A program made the position numbers and the translations under genes. Shown piece after piece: positions 6,518 through 46,433 of a stretch of DNA of 64,000 nt. The first letter of the stretch is position 1. Every line of letters begins with the position of its first letter. The stretch is taken from assembly GCA_041650835.1 (NCBI GenBank), contig JBAZKL010000003.1:291682-355681 (forward strand), read 5' to 3'. Origin of the DNA: Candidatus Omnitrophota bacterium (GTDB taxonomy: Bacteria; Omnitrophota; Gorgyraeia; Gygaellales; Profunditerraquicolaceae). A model generated the notes under the pieces. That model was not told the DNA's origin. It worked only from the letters and a program-made list of their open reading frames with translations, and did no database searches.

Positions 6518-7186
6518 GTGTCTATGTATATTATTATCGTAGGCGCGGGAAAAGTCGGGTATTTCTTAGCTAAGCGGCTGTGTTTAAGCAAACACACGAT
6601 CAGTATCATCGATAAAGACAAGCAGGTCTGTGAAGCGGTCGCGAAAGAATTAGAGGCGCTGGTCATTAACGGCGACGGCTGCGACCCGGTCGTCCTGGAA
6701 GAAGCAGGCGGCTCGCGCGCCGATGTGCTTGCTTCGGTGACCGGTGAAGATGAAGACAACCTGATCATCTGCCAGCTTGCCAAACAAAAATTCAGGGTCC
6801 ATCGCACCATCGCCCGCGTAAACAACCCCGATAATGAACATATTTTTTCTGAGCTGGGGATCGATATCCCCGTTGATTCGACCAAGATCATCGCCAAGAT
6901 AGTCGAGGAAGAAGTATCGTTCTCGGATTTCGTGAATTTGATGAGCTTTAAGCGGGGGAAGCTGGCGATCGTGCGCGTTGACCTCCCCGAAGATTCTCCG
7001 GTCATCAATAAAGAGATAAAAAATGTCCATCTCCCGCAGAACTCGGTCCTGGTTTCGGTTGTGCGCGGGGAGGAAGTCATTGTCCCCAAGGGGGACACCA
7101 TCCTTAAGCCGGGCGACGATGTCATTGCCATTACTTCTATCGGGAACGAGCCCCAACTTTTAAATTTACTGGTCGGGAGGTTATGA
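6518..7186 (+). CDS. Second Trk/Ktr NAD-binding regulatory subunit paralog
   Basis: IIVGAGKVG Rossmann motif plus RCK_C; tandem with the first TrkA, as in KtrA/TrkA pairs. Confidence 0.75.
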   Translation: MSMYIIIVGAGKVGYFLAKRLCLSKHTISIIDKDKQVCEAVAKELEALVINGDGCDPVVLEEAGGSRADVLASVTGEDEDNLIICQLAKQKFRVHRTIARVNNPDNEHIFSELGIDIPVDSTKIIAKIVEEEVSFSDFVNLMSFKRGKLAIVRVDLPEDSPVINKEIKNVHLPQNSVLVSVVRGEEVIVPKGDTILKPGDDVIAITSIGNEPQLLNLLVGRL

Positions 7187-10311: not shown

Positions 10312-12360
10312 ATGAAGCTTACCTATAATTGGTTAAAAGAGTTTGTCGATATAACGATATCCCCGCGGGAGTTGGCGGATAAGCTGACCATGGCCGGCTT
10401 AGAGGTGACGTCTTTGGAAGCGCGCGACGGTGATACCGTCATTGAAATAGAGATCACCTCTAATCGCCCCGATTGGTTGAGCGTCGCCGGTATCGCGCGG
10501 GAAGTGGCGGCGATTACAGGTAAAAAATTAAAGTTGTCGCAAGACACAAGACACAAGACACAAGAGCGAAGCAAGCTGTCGGCGAGTGGCGTGCCCCATT
10601 TTGATATTATAATTGAAGATAAAAAGGACTGCCCGCTCTATACGGCGCGGGTCATTACCGCAGTTACGGTTGAGCCGTCTCCTGAGTGGTTGCAGAGGCG
10701 ACTGGAGCTTATCGGCTGCCGCAGCGTCAATAATATCGTGGATATCACGAATTATATTTTATTTACCTGGGGAGAGCCGCTGCACGCGTTCGACCTTGAT
10801 ACCTTAAGCGGGGGATCTATTATTGTGCGCCGCGCAGAGGTGGGTGAGAAAATAACGATGATCAACGGACAGGAGAAACAGCTCGATCCGGGTATATTGG
10901 TGATCGCTGACCGGCAAAAGCCCGTCGCGGTGGCAGGGGTGATGGGTGGCAAAGATTCGGAAGTGGGAGAGAGAACAAAAAATATTCTTTTGGAAGCGGC
11001 GGTCTTCAATCCTGTTGTGGTCCGCCGCGGCCGTCAGGCTTTAGGGCTTCAGAGTGAGTCGGCCTATCGTTTTGAGCGGGGCGTTGACACAGAGAATGTC
11101 GACTTTTCATCGCAAAAAGCGCTTGCTTTGATAGGGGGATCGGCAGGCGGCAGCTGCGTGTTGGTGAAGCATTCGGGAATACAGCACGCCCCCGGCAGGC
11201 AGGTATCGTTGGAATTAGAGGCCCTTAACCGGCTCCTGGGGGTTGTTATTGAGCCGGCACAGGTAAAGCGTATTTTAATATCTTTAGGCTTTAAAGTTTC
11301 CGTTAAATCAAAAAATGTTTTCTCCGCGCAAGTCCCGTCTTTTCGCCAGGATGTTTGCCTCGACAGGGACCTGGTGGAGGAGGCCGCGCGTATCTTCGGC
11401 TATGATAATATTCCGGCGAGCCTGCCCGCGTTCATCGCGCAGGCGCGTTATACCAATTCATTGAGTGAGGCCGATCTCATAAAGGATTGTTTAACCAGCC
11501 TGGGGCTTTTTGAGGTGGTGACGCACAGCCTTGTTGATGACGCCTTCTTGCGTAAATCCTGTGTCAGCTCTGCCGATCCGGTAGCATTGCAAAATCCATT
11601 GAGTGAGGAGCAGGGAGTACTGCGCACGACGCTTATCCCGAGCTTACTGCGCTGCGCCGCCGGCAACCTTAATCAAAATCAGGAGCTGGTCAATATTTTT
11701 GAAGTGGCGCATGTGTTTTCACGCGTAGAGGGGGAGGTTTTAGAAAAGCCGGTGGTAAGCTTTGTTTTATGCGGAGAGAGGAATTTCTGGCTCACCGAGG
11801 GGCGCCTCCGGGATGAAATGGGCATGTTACACGTTAAGGGGATCATAGAAGCTGTTTTTTCGCAAGCGGGGATCCGCGATTACAGCTTTCGGGCGCAAGA
11901 GGGCTGTGCCGAGATCGAGGTGCTGGTAAAGCGTGAACCCGTCGGTAAGATGTACGCGCTGCGCAAGAATATACTTGAACAATTCCAGATCAAGAATAGG
12001 TCGCTTTTCGCCGCGGAGCTTTCTTTGGAAAAAATTTTCGCCGCGGCTGATCTTAAAAAGAAATTCAAGGCCATGCCGGCGTATCCCGCGATATCCCGCG
12101 ACATAAGCCTGGTCATAAAAGCGGGAGTCCCGGTCGCTGATATTTTAAGCGCGATCAAAGAAAAAGCGGGAGCGCTCCTGCGGGAGGCGGCGGTCGTTGA
12201 TTGTTATCAGGGCAAGCAGATACCCGTCGGATTTAAAGGATTGACTATTTCCTGCCTTTATCGCTCTGATGAGGGGACGCTGGTTGAATCTCAAATAGCC
12301 CCGCTGCACGCTGGGGCGTCTGAAGTTTTACGCGAACGATTCGCTGCTGTGTTGAGGTGA
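10312..12360 (+). CDS. pheT: Phenylalanyl-tRNA synthetase beta subunit (short, 682 aa)
   Basis: MKLTYNWLKEFVD N-terminus and B3/4, B5 and FDX-ACB-like regions. Contains a CAAGACA x3 tandem repeat encoding SQDTRHKTQ near 10541-10563. Confidence 0.85.
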   Translation: MKLTYNWLKEFVDITISPRELADKLTMAGLEVTSLEARDGDTVIEIEITSNRPDWLSVAGIAREVAAITGKKLKLSQDTRHKTQERSKLSASGVPHFDIIIEDKKDCPLYTARVITAVTVEPSPEWLQRRLELIGCRSVNNIVDITNYILFTWGEPLHAFDLDTLSGGSIIVRRAEVGEKITMINGQEKQLDPGILVIADRQKPVAVAGVMGGKDSEVGERTKNILLEAAVFNPVVVRRGRQALGLQSESAYRFERGVDTENVDFSSQKALALIGGSAGGSCVLVKHSGIQHAPGRQVSLELEALNRLLGVVIEPAQVKRILISLGFKVSVKSKNVFSAQVPSFRQDVCLDRDLVEEAARIFGYDNIPASLPAFIAQARYTNSLSEADLIKDCLTSLGLFEVVTHSLVDDAFLRKSCVSSADPVALQNPLSEEQGVLRTTLIPSLLRCAAGNLNQNQELVNIFEVAHVFSRVEGEVLEKPVVSFVLCGERNFWLTEGRLRDEMGMLHVKGIIEAVFSQAGIRDYSFRAQEGCAEIEVLVKREPVGKMYALRKNILEQFQIKNRSLFAAELSLEKIFAAADLKKKFKAMPAYPAISRDISLVIKAGVPVADILSAIKEKAGALLREAAVVDCYQGKQIPVGFKGLTISCLYRSDEGTLVESQIAPLHAGASEVLRERFAAVLR

Positions 12361-12524
12361 TACTCGGTGCTCGGTGGTCGGTTATTGGTTGTCGGTTAAA
12401 GTCACCGATCACCTATAACCGAGTCACCGATAACCGGGCTACTCTTCCCTGTCATGCCCGCCCCGTTAAAAACTGCGTTTCTAACGGGGCCCGCGAAAGC
12501 GGGCATCTATGTTTTAGAATTCCC

Positions 12525-12553
12525 TTGACTATTTCTCCTCGCTGTGGTATAGT
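12525..12553 (+). promoter_or_regulatory. Near-consensus sigma70 promoter (TTGACT-17 bp-TATAGT)
   Basis: TTGACT at 12525-12530, a 17-bp spacer, TATAGT at 12548-12553; no protein-coding ORF follows within about 700 bp. Confidence 0.5.
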
Positions 12554-12559
12554 ATAGTC

Positions 12560-12747
12560 AATAAAGGAATTAAGAAAATATCCCTGCGGTGTGCGTTGGA
12601 TAATTTGATGATTGGTGAACCAACACCTTATTACAGGGAGCCAAAACTCTCTTATCGCTTTGGCGTTTAAGAGGCGGTTCCCACCTGTAACCAAAACGGT
12701 TCACACCCATCATGTCTAACGGCACGGTGGGGTTTTTTTTTGCGCCA
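12560..12747 (+). ncRNA. Candidate small non-coding RNA (unassigned family)
   Basis: Promoter just upstream and nested complementary segments (TCCCTG...CAGGGAG; GGTGTGCGTTGG...CCAACACC). 3' end is a stem UCCCACC...GGUGGGG followed by U9. Length about 180 nt, the 6S-RNA size range, but no family-specific motif recognised. Confidence 0.3.
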
Positions 12748-13266
12748 GAAAGGCGCATACCCGCGCCATTCCGCCGCAGCAAGCGGCGTACCCGCGCAAC
12801 TCCGATCAACGCGGGGTGCGCAGGCAGCAAGCGGCGTACCCAGCCATTCCAATGAGGCTGGATGCGATCTGCGCTGGGTGTAAATCAGAAGGTCTGTTTT
12901 AATCAGGGATTAATCTAATTGAAACATCAGCGGTTATAGATTGGGTTATGCCCGCTTCTCTTATTTAACAATGCCTTCGTTATCTTTCATATCCTTAATT
13001 AACGATATCCACACATTGCCCCTGTTTCTCTTAGTTACTTCCCCAGCGTCATTCCCGTTCTCTTGCATAGCTCTAACGGGGCCCGCTTAGAGCCGAGTAA
13101 ACACGCGGGCATGACAAGAGGGCTGTCGATATTTTCCCTTGTTACAACATCTAAAGCATGATAAAATTTATAGTTAAGAATGAGTATAATTTCATCCCTC
13201 GCTGCCGGCAGTAAAAGCAGGGCAGTTCGGGATAAGGTTTTCTATGCGTAAAAGAGAGAAAATTTT

Positions 13267-13917
13267 ATGATCGTTACTCAACAAAAAACAATTACAGAGA
13301 TCACCGACAGCCTCAAGGGCTGTAAGAAAATATTTCTTGTGGGTTGCGGAGAATGCGCTACTACGTGTAAGACTGGCGGTAAGCATGAAATTGAGCAGAT
13401 GCAAAAGCAGTTGGAATCAGCCGGCTTCTCTGTCGTCGGAAGTTGCATTCCCGACGCTCCCTGTGTTGCCGCGCAGATAAAGACGGAATTTGCCAAACAG
13501 ATGAAAGCTTTGCGGGAAGCCGAGGCGGTTGTTGTCCTCTCCTGTGGTTTAGGCGTGCAGTCTGCCAAAGATAACGACCGTTTGGGTTTGACGGTTGTGC
13601 CTGCCTGTAATAGTTTATTCGGCGCCGTAGTTGACGCTCAAGGGGCTTTTGTTGAAAAATGCTCTTTATGCGGCGCTTGTGTTTTACAGGATACGGGGGG
13701 TATCTGCCCGGTCACCTTATGCGCGAAAGGCTTGTTGAACGGCCCCTGCGGCGGCGCGGATAAGGGTAAATGCGAAGCGGATAAAGAAAAAGACTGCGCC
13801 TGGATATTGATCTACCGCGAGCTTGAGAAAAAGAACCGCGTGGAGAAGTTGAAGAAAATTCAGCCTCCGCAAGATCATAAAAAAACAGGAAAACCGCGTA
13901 AAATAAGCGTTCAATGA
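13267..13917 (+). CDS. Cys-rich protein with MTHFR C-terminal-like domain (NGPCGG motif)
   Basis: GCGECATTC and CSLCGACV...GICPVTLCAKGLLNGPCGG motifs resemble the zinc-ribbon-like MTHFR_C/MetV family; adjacent to a folate enzyme. Confidence 0.45.
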   Translation: MIVTQQKTITEITDSLKGCKKIFLVGCGECATTCKTGGKHEIEQMQKQLESAGFSVVGSCIPDAPCVAAQIKTEFAKQMKALREAEAVVVLSCGLGVQSAKDNDRLGLTVVPACNSLFGAVVDAQGAFVEKCSLCGACVLQDTGGICPVTLCAKGLLNGPCGGADKGKCEADKEKDCAWILIYRELEKKNRVEKLKKIQPPQDHKKTGKPRKISVQ

Positions 13918-14504
13918 AAAATAAGCCGGAAATTATAAAAGAGCATAGGGCACTTAAAGATGTAGCATTGACAAAACAGCTAATTCGTAATAAAATTTTA
14001 ATTAAGCTAAAAAGACAGAAGGAGGAAGACCGCGTTATAAAGAGCCGGAAAATAAAAGAAAAACTTTTTAGTGAAAAAGCGTTCAAGAAAGCAAAGATAG
14101 TAATGTTTTATATATCAGTGGTTGGCGAGGTGGATACAACGGAGATGATAAAAGAAGCGCAAATTTTAGGTAAAATGATCCTGGTACCTGTTTGTTGGGA
14201 TAAAACTATAGTAGCCTGTTTGTTGGATAATAAGGCAAAACTCCAAAAAGGCCCGTATGGTATATGGGAACCTGTGGTTAAGAAGCCTTTTCCTGGAGAA
14301 AATATAAGCCTTGTCATTGTGCCGGGGCTGGCGTTTAATAAAAAAGGCAATCGATTAGGCCGCGGCAAGGGCTATTATGACCGCTTCTTGAGTAATATTC
14401 CTTCGAAAGTAACCTCTATTGGCTTGGCATTTGATTTTCAAATCCTGCCACGTATCCCTTCTACTCCCACTGACGTAAGCGTTGATAAAGTCGTTTGTGC
14501 TTAA
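13914..14504 (+). CDS. 5-formyltetrahydrofolate cyclo-ligase
   Basis: About 196 aa with the diagnostic G-x-G-x-GYYDR motif (RLGRGKGYYDRFL). Confidence 0.7.
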   Translation: MKNKPEIIKEHRALKDVALTKQLIRNKILIKLKRQKEEDRVIKSRKIKEKLFSEKAFKKAKIVMFYISVVGEVDTTEMIKEAQILGKMILVPVCWDKTIVACLLDNKAKLQKGPYGIWEPVVKKPFPGENISLVIVPGLAFNKKGNRLGRGKGYYDRFLSNIPSKVTSIGLAFDFQILPRIPSTPTDVSVDKVVCA

Positions 14505-14693
14505 GATCAACGGACGTACCCGGGTAAACGAGCAAGCAGAAACAACAATTGCAATCTCACGGTAAACTAAAACTGCAACGGTAATGCCATGGCGTTAAAA
14601 CGCAAGAATATCATGAAAATGGCATTAGTTGTGAGCTATTGGTGTTAATGAAGCGCTGTTTAACGCGATAGCTTGAAGGAGGTTGAGTAATCG

Positions 14694-16250
14694 ATGTTGA
14701 TGAATATAGTGCTTTTTATTGTTATTGCCGCAGTAGCGGCGTTTGTGGGGTATTTTTTAAGACGGTATGTTGCTGAAAAAAAGATCCAGGATGCCGAGAC
14801 CACCGTAAAACATATCCTGGAGCAGGGTAAAAAAGAAGTGGAAGACCGCCGCCGCGGCGCGGAGTTGGAAGCAAAGGACCTCTTGTACCGGATGAGGCAG
14901 GACTTCGAGAAAGAGACCAAAGACAGGCGGCAGGAAATATTTAATTTAGAGAAACGGCTTACCCAGAAAGAGGAGAATATCGACCGCAGGCTCGACCTTT
15001 TGGAAAAGAAAGAAAAAGAGATCGAGCAGCGCCAGGAAGGCGTGAAGCGGCAGGAAGAAGGCGTTAAGGCAAAGGACAACCAGCTGCATCAACTCATCGC
15101 GGAAGAGAAGGAGCGGCTGCAAAAGATCTCTTCGCTTTCCATCGAGGAAGCGCGGCAGATCCTGCTTTCCCGTTTAAGCGATGAATTAAATTCCGAGAAA
15201 GCGGTCTTGATAAAGCGGCAGGAAGAAGAGCTGCGCAGCAGCGCCGATAAAAAAGCCAAAGAGATCATCAGCCTTTCCATCCAGCGCTGCGCGGCGGATC
15301 ACGCGGTTGAGTCGACCGTAAGCGTTGTCACGCTTCCCAGCGATGAAATGAAAGGCCGGGTTATCGGGCGTGAAGGCCGTAATATCCGCGCTTTTGAAAT
15401 GGCGACGGGCGTCGATGTTATTATCGATGATACCCCTGAAGCGGTAACGCTCTCCTGCTTTGATACGGTACGCAGGGAAGTCGCGCGCTTGAGCCTGGAG
15501 AAGCTGATCAATGACGGAAGGATACACCCGGGGAGGATCGAAGAAGTCGTCGAGAAAACAAAGCAGGAGATGGATGAGAAGATCCGCGAGGAGGGCGAAC
15601 GCGCCGCGTTCGATGCCGGAGTCGACGGGCTGCATGTTGAAATAATCAAGCTGTTGGGCCGTTTGAAATACCGGACCAGCTTTGGCCAGAATGCCCTGCA
15701 GCATTCCAAGGAAGTATCTTTTCTTATCGGGGTCATGGCCTCGGAATTAGGGTTGGATTTTAAGTTGGCAAAGCGTATCGGCTTGCTGCATGATATCGGC
15801 AAGGCCGTTGACCATCAGGTTGAAGGCACGCACGCCAAGCTCGGCGCCGACCTGGCTAAGAAATTTAACGAGTCTTTTGAAGTCATACACGCTATTGAGG
15901 CGCATCACGAAGAAACTGAAGCGAAAAGTTTTTACGCTGTTTTAGCGGTCGCGGCTGATGCTATCAGCGCGGCCCGTCCCGGCGCCCGCAGAGAGACGCT
16001 TGAGACATACATTAAGCGGCTGGAGAAGCTTGAGTCCATCGCGAATGTCTTTAAAGGCGTGGAAAAGTCTTTTGCCATACAGGCAGGCCGTGAGATCAGG
16101 GTTGTCGTGCAGCCGGAAAAGATCTCGGATAATGACGCGGTCAACCTTGCCAGAGAGATCCGCAAGAAGATCGAAGAGGGCATGGAATATCCCGGCCAGA
16201 TCAAGGTGACCGTGATCCGGGAAACCAGGGCTATCGAGTACGCGAAGTAA
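14694..16250 (+). CDS. rny: Ribonuclease Y
   Basis: N-terminal TM helix, long coiled coil, KH domain ([12 protein letters not shown]) and HD domain (LLHDIGK). Confidence 0.9.
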
Positions 16251-16254
16251 TAAC

Positions 16255-16398
16255 AGGTTAAGTCTAAAGGTTAAAGTTTAAATAACAAAGGAAATTCAAA
16301 GGTCAAAGGGCCCTGCCTGCCGGCAGGTAATTTGAAATTTAACCTTAAATCTTTAACCTTGCTTTGTTATTTAGACTTTATACTTTAAAATTTAAGCA
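16255..16398. repeat. About 140-bp imperfect palindromic MITE-like intergenic element, copy 1
   Basis: TAAATAACAAAGGAAATTCAAAGGTCAAAGG...CCTTAAATCTTTAACCTTGCTTTGTTATTTAGACTTTATACTTTAAAAT with a central CCTGCCGGCAGG palindrome; related copies at about 20652-20762 and 27398-27650. Confidence 0.6.
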
Positions 16399-19334: not shown

Positions 19335-20648
19335 ATGACTCATGACCTTTTTTCTCAACCCGGTGAAAAAAAACCTGACAGGCATGTTTTCTCGGTTTCG
19401 GAAATTACCCAGGGGATAAAATTCACCTTGGAAAGCACCTTTAACGAAATTTGGGTGGAAGGGGAGATCTCGGGAGTGTCGCGGATCTCTACCGGAACGG
19501 TTTTCTTCTCCCTTAAAGACGATAAAAGTATTTTGAAATGCGTGATATTCTATTCTTTTTCCCGCGCCCTTAAAGTTGAGATCAAGGACGGCATGAAGGT
19601 GATCTGTTTCGGGCGGGTGAGCGTTTATGAGAAAGACGGCAAATACCAGCTGTATGTCGAAAGCCTCGAGCCCAAAGGTATCGGGAGCCTGCAGCTGGCG
19701 CTGGAGCAATTGAAAGAAAAGCTGGAAAAAGAGGGATTGTTCGCCCCTGAGGGTAAAAAGCCCATCCCCTATCTTCCGTCGCGTATCGGGGTGGTGACCT
19801 CTCCGACGGGAGCGGCGGTCCGCGATATGCTCAAGGTCCTCAATGGGCGCTTTAAGGATGTGCATATCATTATAAATCCCGTGCGCGTCCAGGGGGAAGG
19901 CGCAAAAGAAGAGATCGCCCAGGCGATCGATGAGTTTAACCGCTGGGGAAATATCGACGTGATGATCGTCGGCCGCGGCGGCGGCAGTATTGAGGATCTA
20001 TGGGCTTTTAATGAGGAGATCGTCGCGCGGGCAATATACCGTTCAGCGATACCGGTCATTTCCGCGGTAGGCCATGAGCGGGACTGGACCGTCGCCGATC
20101 TTGTCGCCGATAAGCGCGCGGCAACTCCGTCGGTCGCGGCGGAAATGGTCATCCCTAAAAAAGAAGATTTACTGGAACAGCTCGAAGCTTTGGTAAAACA
20201 GCTTAAGAGATCGTTGTCCGATCTTTCTGTCGGCCTGCAGGAAGACTTGGACGGCTTGGCGCACCGGTTGCGCATAGCGTGCGATCACGCGCTGGAATTA
20301 AACGCGCGGCAGCTGGAATCGACGATAAAGAAGCTCTCTTTGTTGAATCCGGTTGTTTTGATCCCGCAATACAAGACAAAGGCGCTTGACCTGGCAAGGC
20401 AGATGTATGTCCTCCTCAGGCATTCGCTCGCGTTGAAAGAATCGGGTTTTACCAAGGCAATAGAAAAATTATCGAATTTGAATCCTTTGAATATCCTCTC
20501 GCGCGGCTATAGCGTTACTTTTAAAGTCCCCGGGTTAAGCGTTGTCAAAGACGCATCCGTGCTTAAGAAGGACGATGTTATTAAAACGCGGCTCCATCAG
20601 GGGAGCGTGATAAGTAGAGTGGAAGAAGTTGAGAAGGATGGAGAATAA
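19335..20648 (+). CDS. xseA: Exodeoxyribonuclease VII large subunit
   Basis: OB-fold N-terminus (VSEITQGIKFTLESTFNEIWVEGEIS) and the conserved catalytic core. Start set at the ATG giving MTHDLF because the upstream part overlaps the previous gene. Confidence 0.85.
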   Translation: MTHDLFSQPGEKKPDRHVFSVSEITQGIKFTLESTFNEIWVEGEISGVSRISTGTVFFSLKDDKSILKCVIFYSFSRALKVEIKDGMKVICFGRVSVYEKDGKYQLYVESLEPKGIGSLQLALEQLKEKLEKEGLFAPEGKKPIPYLPSRIGVVTSPTGAAVRDMLKVLNGRFKDVHIIINPVRVQGEGAKEEIAQAIDEFNRWGNIDVMIVGRGGGSIEDLWAFNEEIVARAIYRSAIPVISAVGHERDWTVADLVADKRAATPSVAAEMVIPKKEDLLEQLEALVKQLKRSLSDLSVGLQEDLDGLAHRLRIACDHALELNARQLESTIKKLSLLNPVVLIPQYKTKALDLARQMYVLLRHSLALKESGFTKAIEKLSNLNPLNILSRGYSVTFKVPGLSVVKDASVLKKDDVIKTRLHQGSVISRVEEVEKDGE

Positions 20649-20651
20649 GTA

Positions 20652-20762
20652 TAAAGGTTAAAGAACAAAGGAAATTCAAAGGTCAAAGGTTTAATTTTAA
20701 AATTTAACCTTAAATCTTTAGCCTTGCTTTGTTATTTAGACTTTATACTTTAGAATTAATAT
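20652..20762. repeat. MITE-like imperfect palindromic element, copy 2
   Basis: AAGGTTAAAGAACAAAGGAAATTCAAAGGTCAAAGG...TTAACCTTAAATCTTTAGCCTTGCTTTGTTATTTAGACTTTATACTTTAGAAT; same family as 16255-16398. Confidence 0.6.
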
Positions 20763-22934: not shown

Positions 22935-23090
22935 TCGGCTCTCGGTTATCAGCCAACACGGGTACCGAGCACCGAGTATCGAGCATCGATAATTGAGATA
23001 TGTGTCATTGCGAGGAGCCCGTCGAAGTTTTTCTGGCGGGCGACGAAGCAATCTTTTTAAACATGGCTAAAAAAACTATAGATAAGAAGC

Positions 23091-27397: not shown

Positions 27398-27650
27398 GCA
27401 AAGTCTAAAGTATAAAGTCTAAATATCAAAGGAAATTCAAAGATTAAAGATCAAATTTTAAATTTCCTACCTGCCGGCAGGAAGAATCAAAGCCATGTCA
27501 TTCCCGCGAGCCCGCAAAAGCTTTAGTGGCGGGCGAAAGCGGGAATCCAAAGAAATGCAAGAATAAAGGTTCAATTTTAAAATTTAGCCTTAAGCCTTAA
27601 ATCTTCCTTTGTTATTTATACTTTAGACTTTAAAATTAACCACATCATAT
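27398..27650. repeat. MITE-like imperfect palindromic element, copy 3, with about 90-bp internal insertion
   Basis: Arms match copies 1 and 2 (CAAAGGAAATTCAAAG...CCTTAAATCTTCCTTTGTTATTTATACTTTAGACTTTAAAAT). Centre contains CCTGCCGGCAGG plus an extra hairpin TGTCATTCCCGCGAGCCCGC...GCGGGCGAAAGCGGGAAT. Confidence 0.5.
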
Positions 27651-29188: not shown

Positions 29189-29521
29189 ATGGATATATAC
29201 TTTAGTAGCAATAAAGATATGAGAATTTTTAATTCGGATAGAGAACTGCAAAAGAAATATGGTCATCTTTCGAAAAAGATTCAGCAAAGATTAGTAGAGT
29301 TGAGAGCGGTTAATTTTTTAGCTGATATTTCTGATTCACCTCCTCCAAGGCGTCATAAATTGGTTAATGATCGTGAAGGTCAATGGGCTGTTGATCTTAA
29401 TGGAAACAAACGATTGATTTTTGAACCAAGCAATGATCCAATTCCTAAAACTGAAACTGGGGCAATTGATTTAACTAAGGTTACCGAAATAACTATTATC
29501 GAAGTAGCGGATTATCATTAA
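29189..29521 (+). CDS. higB: HigB-family (RelE/ParE superfamily) toxin
   Basis: LVNDREGQWAVDLNGNKRLIFEP...VADYH resembles the HigB 'plasmid maintenance system killer' family (C-terminal DYH); the partner HTH gene follows 3 nt downstream. Confidence 0.6.
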   Translation: MDIYFSSNKDMRIFNSDRELQKKYGHLSKKIQQRLVELRAVNFLADISDSPPPRRHKLVNDREGQWAVDLNGNKRLIFEPSNDPIPKTETGAIDLTKVTEITIIEVADYH

Positions 29522-29523
29522 TT

Positions 29524-30627
29524 ATGACGGATAAATCGAAACCTTTCAAATATAGCCCTGATTATGCTGTTCCTCCCGGTGTTACTATTAGTGAATTACT
29601 TAATCATTTAGGAATGACTCAGGTTGAACTAGCCGATAGAACGGGTCGGCCAGAGAAAACAATAAGCGATATAGTAAATGGTAAACAAGGAGTAACTCCG
29701 GAAACTGCGTTACAGTTTGAGCGAGTACTTGGTATGTCAGCAAGCTTTTGGAATAATCTTGAAAAAAATTATCGAGAATCTTTAGTTCGTATTGAAGAGG
29801 TTAAAGCTTTAGAAAAACAAATTAATTGGCTAGAAAACTTTCCAATTGAAAGCATTATTAAAAATGGATGGATGCAGAAACATGATAATGCAGTGGCTCA
29901 ATTGCAAGAGTTGTTATCTTTTATGGGAGTTGCATCACCGAAGGAACTGAGCGTTAGTTGTTCTTCCGCGATTTTCCGAAAATCGAAGAAGATTCAAACA
30001 GATCCTTGGACGCTTTGTGCATGGCTTAGAAAGGGAGAGTTAGAGGCACAATCGGTTGAGTGTAAACCCTATGATAAAAATAAATTTAAGGAATCCTTAT
30101 ATAAAATTCGGGAAATGACAATTACTCCTGATACTCCATCAATTTTACCTCATTGGGGAAAGCTTTGTGCAGAATCTGGAGTGGCGTTAGTTATCATTCA
30201 AGAATTGCCTAAATTAAAAGTCAATGGGGCCACCCGTTGGTTAAAAGATAAGGCAGTAATTCAGCTCTCCCTTTTAAATAAATATGAAGATATTTTATGG
30301 TTTTCTTTTTTTCATGAAGCAGCACATATCTTGTTGCATGGAAGAAAGGATGTTTTTATTGAGGATAGAAATAAATTTGATCAAAATGACATGGAGAAAG
30401 AAGCGGATCAATTTGCTGAAGACTTTCTTGTCCCTCGTAACGAGTACAATGAATTTATATTAAAAGACGATTTTAACCATTCTACCGTAAATAATTTTGC
30501 AAAAAAGATAGGTGTTGGTCCGGGTATTGTAGTAGGAAGGCTTCAGCATGAAGGACTAATTAAATATAACGAACTTGCTAGTTTTAAACCTCGACTTTGC
30601 TGGAAACAACCCTCCAAGAATAACTAA
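29524..30627 (+). CDS. HigA-like HTH antitoxin fused to ImmA/IrrE-family HExxH metallopeptidase domain
   Basis: N-terminal XRE HTH (ISELLNHLGMTQVELADRTGRPEKTISDIVNG) and a C-terminal region with an HEAAH zinc-peptidase motif (FFHEAAHILLHG), COG2856-like. Confidence 0.6.
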   Translation: MTDKSKPFKYSPDYAVPPGVTISELLNHLGMTQVELADRTGRPEKTISDIVNGKQGVTPETALQFERVLGMSASFWNNLEKNYRESLVRIEEVKALEKQINWLENFPIESIIKNGWMQKHDNAVAQLQELLSFMGVASPKELSVSCSSAIFRKSKKIQTDPWTLCAWLRKGELEAQSVECKPYDKNKFKESLYKIREMTITPDTPSILPHWGKLCAESGVALVIIQELPKLKVNGATRWLKDKAVIQLSLLNKYEDILWFSFFHEAAHILLHGRKDVFIEDRNKFDQNDMEKEADQFAEDFLVPRNEYNEFILKDDFNHSTVNNFAKKIGVGPGIVVGRLQHEGLIKYNELASFKPRLCWKQPSKNN

Positions 30628-34355: not shown

Positions 34356-34520
34356 TTCGAGTTATCCTAATTCCGGGAATGGTGACAGTCACTTTTGGGG
34401 ACAGGCATTTTGGTGAGCGATAACCGACAACCGAGTACCGATAACCCGAACACGGTGACAGTCACAAAAAACGTGACAGTCACCGTTTTCTTGGATAAAT
34501 CATAGACGTTTTATTATTTC

Positions 34521-34919
34521 TTACTTTTGCGAGTTTTTTGATTCAAATACGATCTGTCTTAAAGCAAACTGTATTTCTTCGCCGGAATTGCCGGTTTCAA
34601 GTAACGTCAGAATATCTTTTAAGCCGGTTTCAGTCTTGATAGTCCCATTCTCTTGTGTGCGCAGAATGATGGCAAAACCGGCGATGACCGTATCCGCTTG
34701 ACGATCGAGATTTCTCACCGACAGCAGGTATTCACGTATGCGCTCAGGAGACGCTTCGATGCCTGAGATCGCCATCTTTTCGATCTCACGCCATTGCGCG
34801 TCCTGGTTCTCCGCTTCTTCGGAGCTGAGCTCCGGGGCGACAGCACTCGGAATCCTGCCTGGGGGACGTTCTGTTACGGATATTTTCTCAAGTCTCGTAT
34901 ACTGGGGGAGTGAGCGCAT
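34521..34919 (-). CDS. Hypothetical protein (orphan) flanked by composite repeats
   Basis: ORF 34521..35000 trimmed to the internal Met (MRSLPQYTRLEK...) because the upstream 80 nt are a copy of the GTGACAGTCAC composite repeat; no recognisable domain. Confidence 0.3.
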   Translation of the reverse strand: MRSLPQYTRLEKISVTERPPGRIPSAVAPELSSEEAENQDAQWREIEKMAISGIEASPERIREYLLSVRNLDRQADTVIAGFAIILRTQENGTIKTETGLKDILTLLETGNSGEEIQFALRQIVFESKNSQK

Positions 34920-35169
34920 ATCAATCCCGCCGCAAGAACGGTGACAGTCACTTTTGGGGACAGGCATTTTGGTGAGCGATACGAAAACGGTGACAGTCAC
35001 AAATTACGTGACAGTCACCGTTTTCTCAGGTATAATTAAAATTCGATTCCACGAGTATATCTCGCCAGTTAGTATTAGTAAATTTGACATATTACCCTGT
35101 CCCTCGTCGCCGACGATGTTGAATGAGAGCGACTCGGGATTGGCAAAAGAGATAAGTAAAATTAGGTTT

Positions 35170-35241
35170 TGCCCTGTCGTCTAATCGGTAGGACTTCAGA
35201 TTCTGGATCTGACTATCATGGTTCGATTCCATGCGGGGCAG
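35170..35241 (+). tRNA. tRNA-Gln (anticodon CTG)
   Basis: U1-A72 acceptor (TGCCCTG/CGGGGCA), D-arm GTCTAATCGGTAGGAC, anticodon loop TTCTGGA, T-arm ATGGTTCGATTCCAT, discriminator G. Confidence 0.8.
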
Positions 35242-35345
35242 TACTTCGACTCGCCCCTTCGGGGCTCGCTCAGTACAAGTTTTTGTGCTTGAGCCTTTGA
35301 TGCGCGTGTGGTTCTCCTCCTTCGCCCTTTAATAGACAAATTATA
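35236..35345 (+). repeat. About 110-bp direct repeat, copy 1 (starts inside the tRNA-Gln 3' end); copy 2 at 36231..36340
   Basis: GGGCAGTACTTCGACTCGCCCCTTCGGGGCTCGCTCAGTACAAGT...TTCGCCCTTTAATAGACAAATTATA present twice at about 95% identity, bracketing the 35423-36130 toxin-antitoxin pair. Confidence 0.7.
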
Positions 35346-35422
35346 TAAAGCAATAAAATATTTTTATCTTGACAATACAACCATTTAGTTGTATGCTTTA
35401 GTTGGGATAGAAGAGGGGCAAA

Positions 35423-35773
35423 TTGGCGAACATTAGCTGCTTTTATTATGTAACCGAATCCGGGAAATCGGCGGTAAGAGATTTTATTGATTCTTTGGAT
35501 GCAAGCAGCCAGAGAAAATTCTTCTTTGCCAAAAGCTTGCTTGAGGAATTTGGGCATAAGTTACCTCAACCACACGCTAAATATATAGGAGATGAGATAT
35601 TTGAGTTGAGGTTTAAAGGGCAAGAAGGCAATATCAGGGCCTTATATTTTTTCTTTCATCAAGACAAGGTCTTATTTACCAACGGATTTATTAAAAAGAC
35701 CGCTAAAGTGCCGGAAAAAGAGAAGAAGCTGGCTATTGAGAGAAGAAAAGCGTTTCTTGAAAGACATAAATAA
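35423..35773 (+). CDS. Gp49-like/HigB-type type II toxin (RelE/ParE superfamily)
   Basis: IRALYFFFHQDKVLFTNGFIKKTAKVP matches the phage Gp49-like (COG4679) toxin signature. A TTGACA-17-TATGCT promoter lies at about 35372-35400. Confidence 0.65.
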   Translation: MANISCFYYVTESGKSAVRDFIDSLDASSQRKFFFAKSLLEEFGHKLPQPHAKYIGDEIFELRFKGQEGNIRALYFFFHQDKVLFTNGFIKKTAKVPEKEKKLAIERRKAFLERHK

Positions 35774-35785
35774 GGAAGGTGCGCT

Positions 35786-36130
35786 ATGAATATGGAAAGG
35801 GTTGATGAACACTTAAAAGAGAAATTAAAGGATCCGTATTTTAAAGAACTTTATGAACTCCAAGAGCAGAAACTTGATATCGTAAAGCGGGTTATTGACT
35901 ATAGGGTTAAAAATAAGCTGACTCAAGGTCAATTAGCTAAAAAAGCGAAGGTTACCCAACAGCACATCTCTAAGATTGAAAACGGAGATTTCAGCAGTAT
36001 AGTAACCTTGGAGAAGATTTTGCTGTTTATCGGCTATACCGTGAAAATCCAAGCTGTTCCCCTTAGCAATAAAGTCAGGAATAGCATTGAGCGTCTTGTT
36101 CGGGCTAAGCATGGACTTCAGTTTGCTTAA
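35786..36130 (+). CDS. XRE-family HTH antitoxin (HigA-like)
   Basis: LTQGQLAKKAKVTQQHISKIENGDFS HTH; 13 nt downstream of the toxin gene. Confidence 0.65.
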   Translation: MNMERVDEHLKEKLKDPYFKELYELQEQKLDIVKRVIDYRVKNKLTQGQLAKKAKVTQQHISKIENGDFSSIVTLEKILLFIGYTVKIQAVPLSNKVRNSIERLVRAKHGLQFA

Positions 36131-36230
36131 TTTATTCAGGTAAAAAGCGGATTTTGGCGTGCCTATTGAAGATCTGTGTTATTTTTAGCCTGTTCCCCAG
36201 CCATAAAACCGCGCAGTCAGACGTCAATCC

Positions 36231-36340
36231 GGGCAGTACTTCGACTCGCCCCTTCGGGGCTCGCTCAGTACAAGTCTTTGCGCTTGAGCCTTTGATACGC
36301 GCGTGGTTCTCCTCCTTCGCCCTTTAATAGACAAATTATA
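36231..36340 (+). repeat. About 110-bp direct repeat, copy 2
   Basis: See copy 1 at 35236..35345. Confidence 0.7.
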
Positions 36341-36448
36341 GCTCTGACGGGCTCGGGAGGATTTGGGAAATAGGTGTCTGTGCTAACTCTGGCAGAGCAT
36401 AAATAATCATGGCATACTTAAATATTCGATGAAGCAGGGGGGCTTTCT

Positions 36449-41257: not shown

Positions 41258-42853
41258 CTAGTTTTGTCGAGATTTGAGGAGGCGATTCCAGATTTCTTGC
41301 TGCTTATTCCAGTCGACTTCTACGCTTACGTTGCGCAGCTTGTATTCAGGTATGTTGAATAGCGCTTTATCATTAGAGAGGAGTATTTCTTCTTGGATTT
41401 TTGACGATATGAGGAGCATATTTGCTATATGGCATATCCTTGCTGGGGTTATACCGATCCAGCCAGCGATTTCTTTCAAGGTACATTTTCTTTCGCGCGC
41501 CACTTGGTCTATCTGATGAGCTAAGATTAGATTCTGGCGTATAAGTGGTTCCTTGTTTATCTCGGCCTGCTGGCGATGGTAAGGTATATGCTTCAATTCA
41601 GCGAGCTTTAGCGTGAATTGGTGGCTCTTTTCGCCATTATGGGGCATTATTTCGAGGACTCCGTTAATCGCGTCATAATGTGCGACCTTGGCGATTGATT
41701 TGATTATTGGTATCTTTTCTTCTAAGGTTAGCGCTTCCCATCTATTGGCTTCAATACTTGGATCATTGGACATCATTCTTAAGAATTCCATAAACTTATT
41801 CTCGATCACTTGAGCGGAAACAAGACGCGTAGGGCAGTTTTTGTAGCCGCGTTTCTGGGCGTTCATACAAAGGTAGTAATGGTATTTATTGGCGCCTTTC
41901 TTGCTATAAATGTAATACATGGTACTGTCGCAGGCCTTACAGCGTAGGATGCTGTTTAGTAGGCCAGTGCTTGTTACTACGCCTGCAACCTTACGCTCTC
42001 GACGATTATTGGCTAGTATTTCTTGAGTTTTTTGGAATACGTCGTCCGGTATTATACGTTCCTGCTCACCTTGGTAAAGCACTCCAGCATGGTGGACTTT
42101 ACCGATATAAAATGGATTCTTAACTATCGTTTGGATACTCGTGCTTTTAAACTTTATGCCACCAGATTTTTTATTCTTCAGAGTTGCATAGCTTTTTGTT
42201 GTGTGATTCTTTTCATTAAGTACTATTGCTACTGAGAGAAGGGATCGCTTTTCAAGGTAAAGGCCGAATATTTCTTTTACAAGCTTTGCTTCCTTTGAGT
42301 TTATGACGAGTCTGCGGTTTATCTTGTCGATATCATAGCCTAAAGGTGGCCTACCGCCGACCCATTTGCCTTTCTTTTTGGAAGCGGCCATCTTATCGCG
42401 CGTGCGTTCACTTATGATTTCGCGCTCAAACTGGGCGAAGGAAAGGAGTATATTTAATGTCAGACGTCCCATAGAGGTAGTGGTATTAAAATGCTGCGTT
42501 ATTGAAACGAACGTTACGTTGTTTTGTTCAAAAGACTCTAAGAGCTGACTAAAGTCAAGCAGCGATCGCGATAACCTATCAACCTTATATACCACTACAC
42601 AGTTAATCTTGCCGTCTTTAATGTCAGCCATGAGCTTTTGCAGGGCAGGTCGCTCAGTATTCGCTCCTGTGTAGCCAGGATCATCATAACGTTCTGGCAA
42701 TGCTACCCAGCCTTCCGACTTTTGGCTTTGGATGTAGCTTTCAGCGGATTCGCGTTGGTTATCTAAAGACGTAAATTCCTGCGCTAGTCCTTCAGTAGTT
42801 GAGACGCGCGTATATATAGCACAGTTGATCTTTTTCTTTTCAGTTTTTTCCAT
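41258..42853 (-). CDS. Large serine recombinase (integrase)
   Basis: N-terminal resolvase catalytic domain (CAIYTRVSTTEG with the Ser nucleophile; VVVYKVDRLSRS), then a recombinase domain and a zinc-ribbon/coiled-coil C-terminus; 531 aa. Confidence 0.85.
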   Translation of the reverse strand: MEKTEKKKINCAIYTRVSTTEGLAQEFTSLDNQRESAESYIQSQKSEGWVALPERYDDPGYTGANTERPALQKLMADIKDGKINCVVVYKVDRLSRSLLDFSQLLESFEQNNVTFVSITQHFNTTTSMGRLTLNILLSFAQFEREIISERTRDKMAASKKKGKWVGGRPPLGYDIDKINRRLVINSKEAKLVKEIFGLYLEKRSLLSVAIVLNEKNHTTKSYATLKNKKSGGIKFKSTSIQTIVKNPFYIGKVHHAGVLYQGEQERIIPDDVFQKTQEILANNRRERKVAGVVTSTGLLNSILRCKACDSTMYYIYSKKGANKYHYYLCMNAQKRGYKNCPTRLVSAQVIENKFMEFLRMMSNDPSIEANRWEALTLEEKIPIIKSIAKVAHYDAINGVLEIMPHNGEKSHQFTLKLAELKHIPYHRQQAEINKEPLIRQNLILAHQIDQVARERKCTLKEIAGWIGITPARICHIANMLLISSKIQEEILLSNDKALFNIPEYKLRNVSVEVDWNKQQEIWNRLLKSRQN

Positions 42854-43637: not shown

Positions 43638-46433
43638 ATGACGCGTAGCGAAGCACAAACTAGACAGCAGATCATTGACCAGCGTCTTAAATTGGTTGGC
43701 TGGGATGTAAAAAATCCAACCCATGTCACCGAAGAGCTTGATATTTGGGTTGGTTTGCCCGATGGTGTTGCCGAGTCACAAACGCCATATCAAGGGCATC
43801 TATTTGCTGATTATGCGCTTCTTGGGCAAGACGGAAAGCCATTGGCTGTAGTTGAGGCAAAAAAGACTTCGGTTGAAGCTGAGAAAGGTAAAGAACAAGC
43901 GCGTATTTATACTGAAAAGATCCAGAAGACTACTGGTGGACCTATGCCGTTTGTGTTTTACACAAATGGTTATGACTTTTTTTTCTGGGATACTGAACGA
44001 TACCCTCCACGAAAAGTATATGGCTTTCCTTCACGAGCTGATTTAGATCGCATGCAATTCCTGCGCGACAATAGTAAAGTTTTATCCAGCGAACTTATTA
44101 ACCCGGCCATTGCGGGCAGGCCGTATCAGCTTCAAGCTATACGGGCAATGCTAGAAAATTTTGAACTCAAGCGTCGAAAGAGCTTGCTTGTTATGGCAAC
44201 TGGTACCGGTAAGACGCGGACTTGTATGGGATTGATTGATGTACTAATGCGTACAAATTGGGTTCAACGTGTTTTGTTTCTAGTAGATAGAATCGCTCTG
44301 CAGGAGCAAGCTCTCGATGCTTTCAAGGAGCATCTGCCTAATGCCCCGATTTGGCCCAAACAAGGGGAAGTTAAATTCGCGACAGATCGTCGGGTTTATG
44401 TTGCTACTTACCCGACTATGTTGAATATTATTGAGCAAGACAATTGTCAACTTACATCACATTTTTTCGATATGATTATTGCGGATGAAAGTCACCGGTC
44501 AATTTATAATGTTTATAAAAACATCTTTGATTATTTCGATACGATACAATTAGGACTTACCGCCACCCCCAAGGATCATGTTGACCATAACACTTTTAAA
44601 CTTTTTAACTGTGAAGAAGGTTTACCTACATTTGCATATTCATATGAAGAGGCTCTTAGTAATATTCCGCCCTATTTATCTGATTTTGAAGTCTTGAAAG
44701 TTAGAACAAAGTTTCAGCAGGAAGGCATAAACAGTAAGACAATAGCCGAGGCAGATAAGAAGCGGCTTCTTGCCGAAGGAAGCGATCCAGACGCCTTTAA
44801 TTTTGAAGGAACAGAATTAGAAAAGAAAATTTCGAATAAAGGGACTAATGCAGTTATTGTCCGCGAATTCATGGAAGAGTGTATTAAGGATCCCAATGGT
44901 GTCCTACCGGGTAAAACCATAATCTTCGCACTTTCTAAGAAGCACGCTTATCGCCTTTGTGAGGTTTTCGATGCTCTCTATCCTGAATACAAAGGTCGTC
45001 TGGCAGAAGTAATTATTTCAGATATCAAAGGAGTTCATGGTAAAGGTGGCATTCTTGATCGATTTAAGAATACCGATATGCCACGTGTAGCTATAAGCGT
45101 TGATATGCTTGATACTGGCATCGATATTCTCGAAGTGGTTAATCTCGTATTTGCCAAACCTGTCTTATCTTTCACGAAATTTTGGCAGATGATCGGACGT
45201 GGGACACGTATTTTAGACTCTGAAAAGATTAAGCCATGGTGTACCGAGAAGGAAAAATTTTTAATTATGGATTGTTGGGAGAATTTTGAGTATTTCAAGA
45301 TGAAACCTAAAGGCAAAGAAGAATCTCCGACAATCCCGCTTCCAGTGCGGCTTTTTGAATCCCGACTCAATAAATTATGGATCGCCCTCGAAGCAAAGGA
45401 AGATGAAATTGCAGAAAAGACAAAGAAGAAAATCCAGGACGATATTAAATCCTTACCACAAAATTCTGTTATTGTTCTCGACCACAAGGAATACTTAGAT
45501 CAGGTACAAGAGGAAGCATTTTGGAAGAAGTTATATTTTGGTGAGATTGACTATCTTCGTATTAATGTTGCGCCTGCCATGCGCGCTAAGTCAGACGCGG
45601 ATTTTAAAGCCATGCATTTCGAGTTAGACGTTGTGGACTTGGCAACAGCACACCTAGCTGGACGCGACGAACAATTTGAGGTATTGAAGGAAGGCATAAT
45701 TGAAACGGTCAGCGAGTTACCCTTAACCGTGAATATTGTCGCGCAGGAAAAGGCGTTTATCGAAAAAGTTCAGAGCAAGAATTTTTGGATAATATTCACT
45801 GATTTAGATCTGGATGAAATGGTAGCGCGCTTAGCGCCACTTATGAAGTTTCGCGAGCAGAATAAAATCAAACAAACCAAGGCTGATTTAATGGATTTAT
45901 TAACTGTTAAAGAGTATATCGAATTTGGCCCTGAGCATGAGCGGCTTACCATTGGTAAATATCGCCAGAAGGTTGAGGACGCAGTTCGTGAACTGATCAA
46001 ATCAAACGAGGTTTTGCAGAAGCTTCTTGCCGGAGATGACCTTTCGGAGGATGAAATCAGAAAATTGGCTGAGATTTTAGAAACCCAATACCCGAACGTT
46101 ACAGAATACATCTTGCGTGAGATTTACGATAATCGAAGCGCGAAGTTTATTCAGTTTATTAAGCACATTTTAGGGTTGGAACCACTAGGGACGTTTACCG
46201 AAACAGTTTCGATGGCGTTTGATGATTTTATCAGAAAACACAATAACTATACTCAACAACAAATCCAATTTTTGTTGACGTTAAAGACATTTATCCTGCA
46301 AAAGGGTAAAGTTGAAAAACGAGACTTAGTTAACGCCCCATTTACCCAATTGCATCCACAGGGTATTCGGGGGATTTTTCAATCGAATGAAATTAATGAG
46401 ATTCTAGCGTTGGCGCAGAAACTTGAGGGCTAA
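43638..46433 (+). CDS. hsdR: Type I restriction enzyme R subunit
   Basis: N-terminal SEAQTRQQIIDQRL...GW motif, DEAD/DEAH helicase motifs (MATGTGKT, DESH) and a C-terminal helical domain; 931 aa. Confidence 0.9.
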   Translation: MTRSEAQTRQQIIDQRLKLVGWDVKNPTHVTEELDIWVGLPDGVAESQTPYQGHLFADYALLGQDGKPLAVVEAKKTSVEAEKGKEQARIYTEKIQKTTGGPMPFVFYTNGYDFFFWDTERYPPRKVYGFPSRADLDRMQFLRDNSKVLSSELINPAIAGRPYQLQAIRAMLENFELKRRKSLLVMATGTGKTRTCMGLIDVLMRTNWVQRVLFLVDRIALQEQALDAFKEHLPNAPIWPKQGEVKFATDRRVYVATYPTMLNIIEQDNCQLTSHFFDMIIADESHRSIYNVYKNIFDYFDTIQLGLTATPKDHVDHNTFKLFNCEEGLPTFAYSYEEALSNIPPYLSDFEVLKVRTKFQQEGINSKTIAEADKKRLLAEGSDPDAFNFEGTELEKKISNKGTNAVIVREFMEECIKDPNGVLPGKTIIFALSKKHAYRLCEVFDALYPEYKGRLAEVIISDIKGVHGKGGILDRFKNTDMPRVAISVDMLDTGIDILEVVNLVFAKPVLSFTKFWQMIGRGTRILDSEKIKPWCTEKEKFLIMDCWENFEYFKMKPKGKEESPTIPLPVRLFESRLNKLWIALEAKEDEIAEKTKKKIQDDIKSLPQNSVIVLDHKEYLDQVQEEAFWKKLYFGEIDYLRINVAPAMRAKSDADFKAMHFELDVVDLATAHLAGRDEQFEVLKEGIIETVSELPLTVNIVAQEKAFIEKVQSKNFWIIFTDLDLDEMVARLAPLMKFREQNKIKQTKADLMDLLTVKEYIEFGPEHERLTIGKYRQKVEDAVRELIKSNEVLQKLLAGDDLSEDEIRKLAEILETQYPNVTEYILREIYDNRSAKFIQFIKHILGLEPLGTFTETVSMAFDDFIRKHNNYTQQQIQFLLTLKTFILQKGKVEKRDLVNAPFTQLHPQGIRGIFQSNEINEILALAQKLEG

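Follow-up and report, generated by a model that had tools for sequence, protein, structure and literature searches.

We analysed 64,000 nucleotides (nt) of contig JBAZKL010000003.1 of Candidatus Omnitrophota bacterium (assembly GCA_041650835.1, positions 291,682 to 355,681 of the forward strand; this whole stretch is called the window), in which a HigB(Gp49)/HigA toxin-antitoxin (TA) operon stands behind a tRNA-Gln gene, between two direct repeats of 110 bp. We consider it moderately probable that a small non-autonomous mobile element carrying this putatively self-regulated operon has left the segment as its rearranged remnant. From the copies of the element in related Omnitrophota it appears that the true core repeat is only 6 bp long (GGGCAG) and that the 110-bp repeat is a secondary rearrangement specific to the window. 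What was observed, and what this reading draws on, is the anatomy of the locus, the ends of the element in relatives, its presence and absence among them and an excess of conservation in the TA genes.

The tRNA-Gln(CUG) gene lies on the forward strand at 35170-35241 (ARAGORN; Rfam RF00005, 57.5 bits; 35169/35170 to 35241/35242 between tools). Its 3' end reads ...GCGGGGCA-G, CCA is not encoded, and the final six bases are GGGCAG; the gene is 97% identical to the tRNA-Gln of L121, the locus of the closest relative found. It is exactly at these six bases that the repeat identity begins. Copy A (35236-35345, forward strand) consists of GGGCAG, here the tRNA end, and a 104-nt trailer, Y; copy B (36231-36340, forward strand) has the same two parts, its GGGCAG being a putative target or overlap copy. 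The repeat search found these two copies in the window, 995 nt apart, at 96% identity. In the pairwise alignment 106 of 110 positions are identical, and the four differences are all transitions in the 3' tail. The repeat of about 110 bp and 95% identity that the original prediction had described from the last six nt of tRNA-Gln is thus real, as is its statement that only a promoter, a toxin gene and an antitoxin gene lie in between.

Each copy of Y starts with a hairpin resembling a repetitive extragenic palindrome (REP). In copy A the hairpin, GTAC-TTCGACTCGC-CCC-TTCG-GGG-GCTCGCTCA-GTAC, occupies 35241-35276 on the forward strand (covariance model R1, 55.6 bits, E=1e-13), and its outermost pair involves the discriminator G of the tRNA; the hairpin of copy B was found by the same model at 36236-36271, also on the forward strand. 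Copy A of the hairpin is followed by AAGTTTTTG, with which it may act as the terminator of the tRNA-Gln transcript. The rest of Y is a tail of 68-69 nt with the pyrimidine tract CTCCTCCTT (35277-35345, forward strand, in copy A). BLAST found no third copy of the tail in the window and loci L001-L125, and a 20-mer from it had two matches only in JGI metagenomes, both judged to be chance. Behind copy B come 51 unique nt (36341-36391) before homology with relatives restarts at 36392, which in BLAST against L121-L125 corresponds to the final ~15 nt of a lipoprotein gene that precedes the two-CW gene in those relatives. Here lies a second breakpoint.

The operon itself is preceded by a sigma-70-like promoter, TTGACA-17-TATGCT, located by promoter scan at 35369-35397 (forward strand). 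A palindrome at 35375-35394, ATACAAC-N6-GTTGTAT, overlaps the spacer between −35 and −10 and is probably the HigA operator. The toxin gene (35423-35773, forward strand, TTG start) encodes a Gp49/HigB-like protein of the RelE/ParE superfamily with 116 aa, which matches PF05973 over profile positions 1-90 of 90 (E=1.1e-23). Its 337 homologues, many of them from Omnitrophota, mostly have ~116 aa and carry the source annotation "RelE/ParE family toxin"; together with homologues of the neighbouring two-CW protein they indicate Candidatus Omnitrophota as the origin. The antitoxin gene (35786-36130, forward strand) starts 12 nt past the toxin stop codon, so that the order is toxin first; it encodes 114 aa of the HTH_3/Xre type (PF01381, E=3.4e-10), and its NCBIfam matches to antitoxin-type HTH models are all under their cutoffs. 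At 38%, the TA module is poorer in GC than the window (44%) and the neighbouring genes (45-50%). Promoter and palindrome are kept in five lineages (the window, L128, L132, L144 and L145), and TA-module homology with the latter four starts at the −35 box, which is therefore the left boundary of the conserved module. The gene pair is likewise kept in L128, L132, L144 and L145, and in L146 the contig stops within the antitoxin gene. By sequence criteria the cargo classes as a HigB(Gp49)/HigA-type type II TA module; the operon is intact and would be expected to have TA activity.

The same TA module lies 3' of tRNA-Gln(ctg) in three lineages, namely the window, L128-L130 and L132-L134. In L128-L130 the layout is tRNA-Gln, a 206-aa open reading frame (ORF) and the TA module, and the match to window positions 35369-36236 is 86% at the DNA level. 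In L132-L134 the genes for POR and GluRS precede tRNA-Gln, which is followed by two small ORFs, the TA module and recQ; here the module is 84% identical in DNA to window positions 35356-36188. The L128 match terminates at ...AGACGGCCAATCC-GGGCAG; like the window, L128 has ...AATCC-GGGCAG here, but unrelated DNA follows. Beyond this GGGCAG, L128 has radC and other genes, then tRNA-Leu and GGDEF. On the other side stands the left end of the element, CCA(C/A)TTTGACGTCTCACAGCG, which L134 has too and which in L128-L130 and L132 directly adjoins the tRNA end. In L128 and L132 this left end provides a CCA right after the discriminator base; the tRNA-Gln genes of the window and L121 are without CCA.

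The two ends of the element are inverted repeats of ~18 bp, TTGACGTCTSACWGCG, with the consensus TTGACGTCT-S-AC-W-GCG. In the window, the conserved 3' segment of the element (36131-36230, forward strand) ends in the right inverted repeat, followed by TCC; the repeat, CGCAGTCAGACGTCAA, is an exact match to the inverted-repeat pattern at 36212-36227 (forward strand). When reverse-complemented, the right end of the window reads GGATTGACGTCTGACTGCGCGG beside GGGCAG, and it agrees with the left ends of L128, L132 and L134 at 16-17 of 18-19 positions. No left inverted repeat was found anywhere in the window, even with 3 mismatches allowed. Behind the tRNA GGGCAG and Y, the interior of the element resumes ~10-23 nt before the TA promoter. 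Both inverted repeats are present at one locus in L128, where direct copies of GGGCAG flank them, and the relatives L128-L130, L132 and L134, which carry the element, do not have the 104 nt of Y after GGGCAG. The six final bases of tRNA-Gln are the core that the gene shares with the right end of the element. It is because the ends in relatives are ~18-bp inverted repeats with GGGCAG flanks in L128 and without Y that we regard the 110-bp repeat as probably secondary. Such a layout fits either a transposon (terminal inverted repeats plus a target-site duplication) or the core of a recombinase site (arm-overlap-arm).

The element was also found away from tRNA-Gln. In L146 no tRNA stands before the left end CCACTTTGACATCTGATGGCG; this end comes after ...AATAGGCAG, downstream of a sigma-like gene, which means that the element is inserted at another GGCAG site as well. 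Bare and more distant copies of the TA module lie between topA and xerC (L144) and after gatB (L145). No recombinase gene lies between the window repeats, nor among the genes called inside the element in L128, L132 and L146. The 206-aa ORF of L128 has weak pilin-like NCBIfam matches only, and for the small ORFs of L132 and L146 there is no match among precomputed Pfam results. Since none of the copies shows a recognisable recombinase gene, the element must move in trans.

The locus L121 comes from a relative whose neighbouring proteins are 86-93% identical to those of the window. In the 20 kb of it that was read there is no TA gene, and the DNA after its tRNA-Gln is unrelated to that of the window. 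The locus runs from tRNA-Gln through the genes for S8 peptidase, lipoprotein and two-CW to tRNA-Leu, and on to GGDEF. In the window the S8 gene is upstream of tRNA-Gln and the lipoprotein gene is cut down to its last ~15 nt; from these two features it follows that the locus was rearranged more than once. Between the window and L132, amino-acid identity is 84% for the toxin and 93% for the antitoxin, as against 55-79% for Dxs, the POR subunits and GluRS. This excess of TA conservation, together with the low GC, the absence from L121 and the several insertion contexts, points to horizontal spread of a small element moved in trans and probably preferring ...GGCAG at the end of tRNA-Gln. The expectation that the operon was left by a decayed mobile insertion at the tRNA-Gln 3' end is therefore borne out by its occurrence in three lineages, its absence from L121 and its excess conservation, but the 110-bp repeats are not the attachment sites of the element. 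The comparison with an unoccupied site came out in part: L121 has tRNA-Gln without TA, but no exact empty site containing Y was found.

Among relatives, blocks of homology begin at a −35 hexamer both at the S8 peptidase gene (window 30902; L121 5881) and at the TA operon (35369). It looks as if promoter-plus-gene modules were the units shuffled, with the intergenic DNA replaced by lineage-specific repeats. A further difference at this locus is that L121 has, at 10950-16118, a 1498-aa ORF and a 160-aa Y1_Tnp gene (IS200/IS605 or RAYT-like) between tRNA-Leu(gag) and the GGDEF regulator; there is nothing at that position in the window.

We propose the following course for the 110-bp repeat. The native trailer of tRNA-Gln would be Y, that is, the REP-like hairpin plus its tail (104 nt). 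In favour of this, every hairpin that model R1 finds in the window, other than the one in repeat copy B, lies 3' of a tRNA gene, and the tail has no further copy in the searches given above. The element would have inserted at the ...GGGCAG of tRNA-Gln in the lineage of the window, leaving Y on its right, so that the Y of copy B would be the original 3' flank of the tRNA gene. A later event would have removed the left end of the element and put the second copy of Y in place. This might have taken either of two routes. In the first, a circle containing the TA operon, the right inverted repeat, GGGCAG and Y was excised aberrantly and re-entered at the tRNA-Gln-Y site through the 110-bp homology; in the second, the block was duplicated in tandem and a deletion then occurred between the left end and the first right end. 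The product of both would be tRNA-[GGGCAG-Y]-TA-right inverted repeat-[GGGCAG-Y]. Aberrant excision and reintegration of the lambda dgal/dbio type, or duplication and deletion, similarly leave one end lost and the host flank duplicated around the cargo; for the window a lambda-like route is purely inferred. The predicted empty site is tRNA-Gln, GGGCAG, Y and then GCTCTGACGG, and the predicted junction of the circle is ...GACGTCAATCC-GGGCAG-CCAMTTTGACGTC.... In viral contigs the junction pattern GACGTC-N5-GGGCAG-N6-TGACGTC had no match. The inverted-repeat pattern had 9 matches there, none of them flanked by GGGCAG or a tRNA, and they were therefore put down to chance. Recombination between the element's own ends could no longer release the remnant TA operon, which, being an addiction module, would counteract its loss by recombination between the repeats.

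Several findings weigh against this course of events. Neither the predicted precursor (tRNA-Gln, intact element, GGGCAG, Y) nor an unoccupied tRNA-Gln-Y site turned up in any genome, and for that reason the order of events and the route of duplication are what we infer. Both ends of the element are present only in L128, where the right inverted repeat has diverged. No recombinase or transposase was linked to the element. The trailer after tRNA-Gln differs in L121, so Y is not shown to be ancestral, and the position of tRNA-Gln relative to the S8 peptidase gene differs between the window and L121, a rearrangement that goes beyond the model. Finally, the search for further copies of Y in the source genome covered the 64-kb window.

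Alternatively, the repeats might have arisen in one step. A circle of ~1 kb, or a larger element since decayed, would have carried an attachment site identical to 110 bp of the tRNA-Gln end and its trailer and would have integrated in the Campbell manner, by an integrase or by homologous recombination, and the repeats would be attL and attR. Direct repeats that start within a tRNA 3' end and surround foreign DNA are the typical geometry of tRNA-linked islands, and such repeats do flank foreign DNA of lower GC here. However, the element in relatives has ends of its own, inverted repeats plus the 6-bp GGGCAG, and no Y. In addition, a right inverted repeat is kept just inside repeat B, of which a plain 110-bp attR has no need; there is no integrase gene within the repeats; and the repeat includes just 6 nt of the tRNA, less than the longer 3' part that integrases targeting tRNA genes usually duplicate. 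One-step integration thus seems unlikely.

Another possibility is that this genome has a dispersed repeat of its own, of a long REP- or MITE-like kind (MITE, miniature inverted-repeat transposable element), which the 110-nt unit represents, and that the TA operon either lies between independent copies or was placed there by recombination between copies. The first 36 nt of Y are indeed a member of a hairpin family with many copies, the window is rich in intergenic repeats, and the neighbouring ORF at 34521-35000 also lies between direct repeats (34377-34491 and 34936-35026). On the other hand, the 69-nt tail is confined to the two copies in the searches given above, and both copies start exactly at GGGCAG, one of them being the tRNA end and the other the flanking repeat of the element. 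We regard a dispersed repeat as decidedly unlikely.

It could also be supposed that the TA operon is an old, vertically inherited neighbour of tRNA-Gln and that the repeat is an unrelated local duplication, with no mobile element involved. Its place 3' of tRNA-Gln in three lineages would be in keeping with this. Nevertheless, the TA genes are far more conserved than housekeeping genes, they are missing from the tRNA-Gln locus of the closest relative, the same left end stands at a non-tRNA site in L146, and inverted repeats and a direct repeat bound the operon, all of which makes plain vertical descent very unlikely. A chimeric join or spurious duplication is most improbable, even though the assembly behind the contig was made from short metagenome reads (record name k141_...), because the repeat copies differ at four positions and a second contig of ~435 kb, from an NCBI metagenome-assembled genome, has the identical antitoxin and mostly the same neighbouring proteins.

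The hairpin at the start of Y was also studied as a family. The pattern TTCGACTCGC-N-GCTCGCTCA occurs at three sites in the window (1630, 35245 and 36240) versus 0 expected in shuffles. The site at 1630 belongs to the hairpin that had been predicted behind tRNA-Val; it is indeed there, and model R1 adds a diverged inverted copy, so that tRNA-Val(gac) is followed by a REPIN-like doublet with a forward-strand copy at 1623-1664 (52.3 bits) and the inverted copy at 1675-1717 (20.1 bits). The doublet region folds with z=−3.1. In GTDB species genomes the hairpin pattern, that is, the first 36 nt of Y, occurs in >119 contigs, several to a genome, when ~20 matches would be expected by chance as estimated at uniform composition. 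Counts of carriers, copies and neighbours given below are among the matches listed. The carriers include Acidobacteriota, Microbacterium and other Actinobacteria, Verrucomicrobiota, Armatimonadota, Omnitrophota, Patescibacteria, Myxococcota, Planctomycetota, Gemmatimonadota and Firmicutes, and a core of 19 nt is conserved across many phyla. The flanking three bases pair in 99 of 133 distinct copies. In an alignment of 70 hairpin sequences 87% of cells are paired, compared with 31-46% when the partners are slid, and the outer stem varies between CG, UA, GC and AU, which is covariation. By eye, the purine strand can form two tandem G-A pairs.

A preference for tRNA genes is evident, with 17 of 137 copies lying within 400 nt of a tRNA (~1.5 expected), 16 of these 17 downstream of it. 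Four copies abut an encoded CCA, which pairs with the TGG that follows. The hairpin part of the repeat, as opposed to the 69-nt tail, is thus widespread in many phyla, usually with no cargo, and enriched 3' of tRNA genes. For the hairpin only, this is one half of what was to refute the original prediction. Over 742 kb model R1 gave 160 matches, which are clustered and often form inverted doublets, as behind tRNA-Val in the window and in L006 and L092. At five loci of Acidobacteriota and Verrucomicrobiota the hairpin lies within RNase P RNA: in P12 in the sense orientation in L089 (1453-1556, from the printed alignment); in P12 in antisense in L076 (likewise from the printed alignment), which has a second copy near the 3' end (the two lie at 6563-6603 and 6782-6830); in P12 of L034 (4318-4359) and L099 (6508-6550), as read from the flanking sequence; and in P3 of L016 (1979-2020), as read by eye. 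The presence of the hairpin within RNase P RNA helices in both orientations suggests DNA-level insertion into tolerant helix tips. In L144, at 7880-7945, a short relative of the hairpin core (CCTGAGCCTGTCGAAGG), preceded by GTGAAGCGAGCCTTTGGCGAGCGG, is found 13 nt upstream of the TA promoter; an element of the hairpin family thus appears to border the TA module at this unrelated locus as well.

Rfam scans, some of them permissive on small stretches, assigned no family to the hairpin or trailer and returned only tRNA, RNase P, SRP (signal recognition particle) and 6S; the best match on the hairpin was Acido-Lenti-1 at 12.5 bits (E=9.7). When the ORFs within 300 nt of the 137 copies were clustered, no common protein family emerged, the clusters consisting just of spurious ORFs over RNase P RNA and of thrS after tRNA-Val. 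A link to a RAYT gene was looked for by tblastn with the L121 Y1_Tnp protein, which found no homologue in the window or at any hairpin-bearing locus; L121 itself is without the hairpin. Searches of the literature by sequence string and phrase found no published description of the hairpin; the only palindrome downstream of tRNAs found to be reported is a different motif, in Methanopyrus. The hairpin is thus apparently an undescribed repeat family of many bacterial phyla. A bolder reading, which we think doubtful, combines two claims: that NNN-TTCGACTCGC-(stem-loop)-GCTCGCTCA-N'N'N' is an undescribed cross-phylum palindromic element or RNA module which colonises tRNA 3' ends, often pairing with CCA, and the P3 and P12 tips of RNase P RNA in either orientation; and that in this genome the tRNA end plus hairpin (GGGCAG|TAC-TTCGAC..., resembling the arm CCA-ATTTGACG...) would be the landing site of a TA mini-element moved by a host or unlinked enzyme.

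HigBA type II TA modules occur on plasmids, in prophages and in chromosomal integron cassettes. The present operon resembles them in its domains, toxin-first order, protein sizes (116 and 114 aa), 12-nt gap and the palindrome over the promoter, but it is carried by a tiny recombinase-less tRNA-end element rather than by an integron cassette or plasmid. An integron cassette was considered and rejected: no R/L boxes or GTTRRRY core of an attC site were seen by inspection, the whole-length fold (z=−1.2) is like that of shuffles, there are just two copies of the repeat, and the scanned window proteins include no tyrosine integrase, their sole recombinase being a large serine recombinase. With P4-like prophages, integrative and conjugative elements, pathogenicity islands and other tRNA-targeting elements or islets the element shares the site at a tRNA 3' end, the distal direct repeat of that end (GGGCAG at 35236-35241 and 36231-36236, with the same layout in L128), presence or absence among relatives and low GC. 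It differs in having no integrase, a tRNA overlap of 6 nt, ends formed by ~18-bp inverted repeats, a size of ~1.6 kb or less and, in L128 and L132, a left end that supplies the CCA missing from the tRNA gene of the window. The want of a recombinase of its own, the defined ends and the small addiction cargo are likewise known from non-autonomous elements moved in trans, such as cargo-bearing MITEs and IMEX (integrative mobile elements exploiting host XerCD), whereas the target here is GGGCAG at a tRNA end and not dif or TA dinucleotides. REP, REPIN and BIME sequences are repetitive extragenic palindromes moved by RAYT transposases, and REPs are usually species-specific. Only the hairpin is comparable to them, as a short, imperfect, extragenic and multi-copy palindrome found in clusters, as inverted doublets and frequently at transcription-unit 3' ends. 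In contrast to them, its 19-nt core is identical across many phyla, it is also found within RNase P RNA helices, and no GTAG-type 5' motif was noted on reading its copies.

Other features of the window are as follows. The ORF at 34521-35000 (reverse strand; 132-159 aa, no family match) lies between direct repeats that pair 34377-34422 with 34936-34981 (98%) and 34447-34491 with 34982-35026 (93%). Palindromes of the form GGTGACAGTCAC-N6-GTGACAGTCACC occur within these repeats; related ones are present at 23087, 27317, 27652 and 30862, and one lies across the tRNA-Gln promoter (35008-35036). A second TA-like pair, at 29189-30627, is situated upstream of the S8 peptidase gene; in it a 110-aa ORF is weakly HigB-like (PF05015, E=8e-4, below cutoff), and the partner of 367 aa that comes after it has a HigA-type HTH fused to a Peptidase_M78 (ImmA/IrrE) domain. 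Between 40836 and 50000, tRNA-Glu(ctc) is followed by the large serine recombinase (41258-42853, reverse strand), DUF2924, an HTH_17 protein and a type I restriction-modification system composed of hsdR (43638-46433), hsdM, hsdS and DUF6602. In L121 a gene for a TPR protein begins ~230 nt after tRNA-Glu, at the end of the fetched stretch, which makes it probable that a defence island has integrated behind tRNA-Glu in the window; a repeat of the tRNA-Glu end (attR) was looked for in the window and not found. A 6S RNA gene is present at 12578-12737 (Rfam, 62.7 bits). AT-rich intergenic repeats of ~75 nt, direct and inverted, are situated between housekeeping genes at 16256-16394, 20647-20759 and 27400-27641, that is, between rny and ymdB, between xseA and xseB and after gltX.

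What most deserves further work is the hairpin family, whether it is a mobile DNA hairpin or a module of RNA processing or termination. For a REP-like repeat, a 19-nt core that extends from Actinobacteria to Acidobacteriota, Verrucomicrobiota, Armatimonadota, Patescibacteria and Omnitrophota is out of the ordinary, and so are its enrichment behind tRNA genes and its occurrence in both orientations in RNase P RNA. The TA mini-element at the end of tRNA-Gln is itself an ordinary kind of genomic islet. On a small scale it illustrates how addiction modules come to be fixed in chromosomes, since a minimal, recombinase-less element at a tRNA end that has lost one end can no longer exit by site-specific excision. 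Elements as small as this escape the programs that find islands and prophages, and they may be a common route by which TA modules spread in uncultured phyla such as Omnitrophota.

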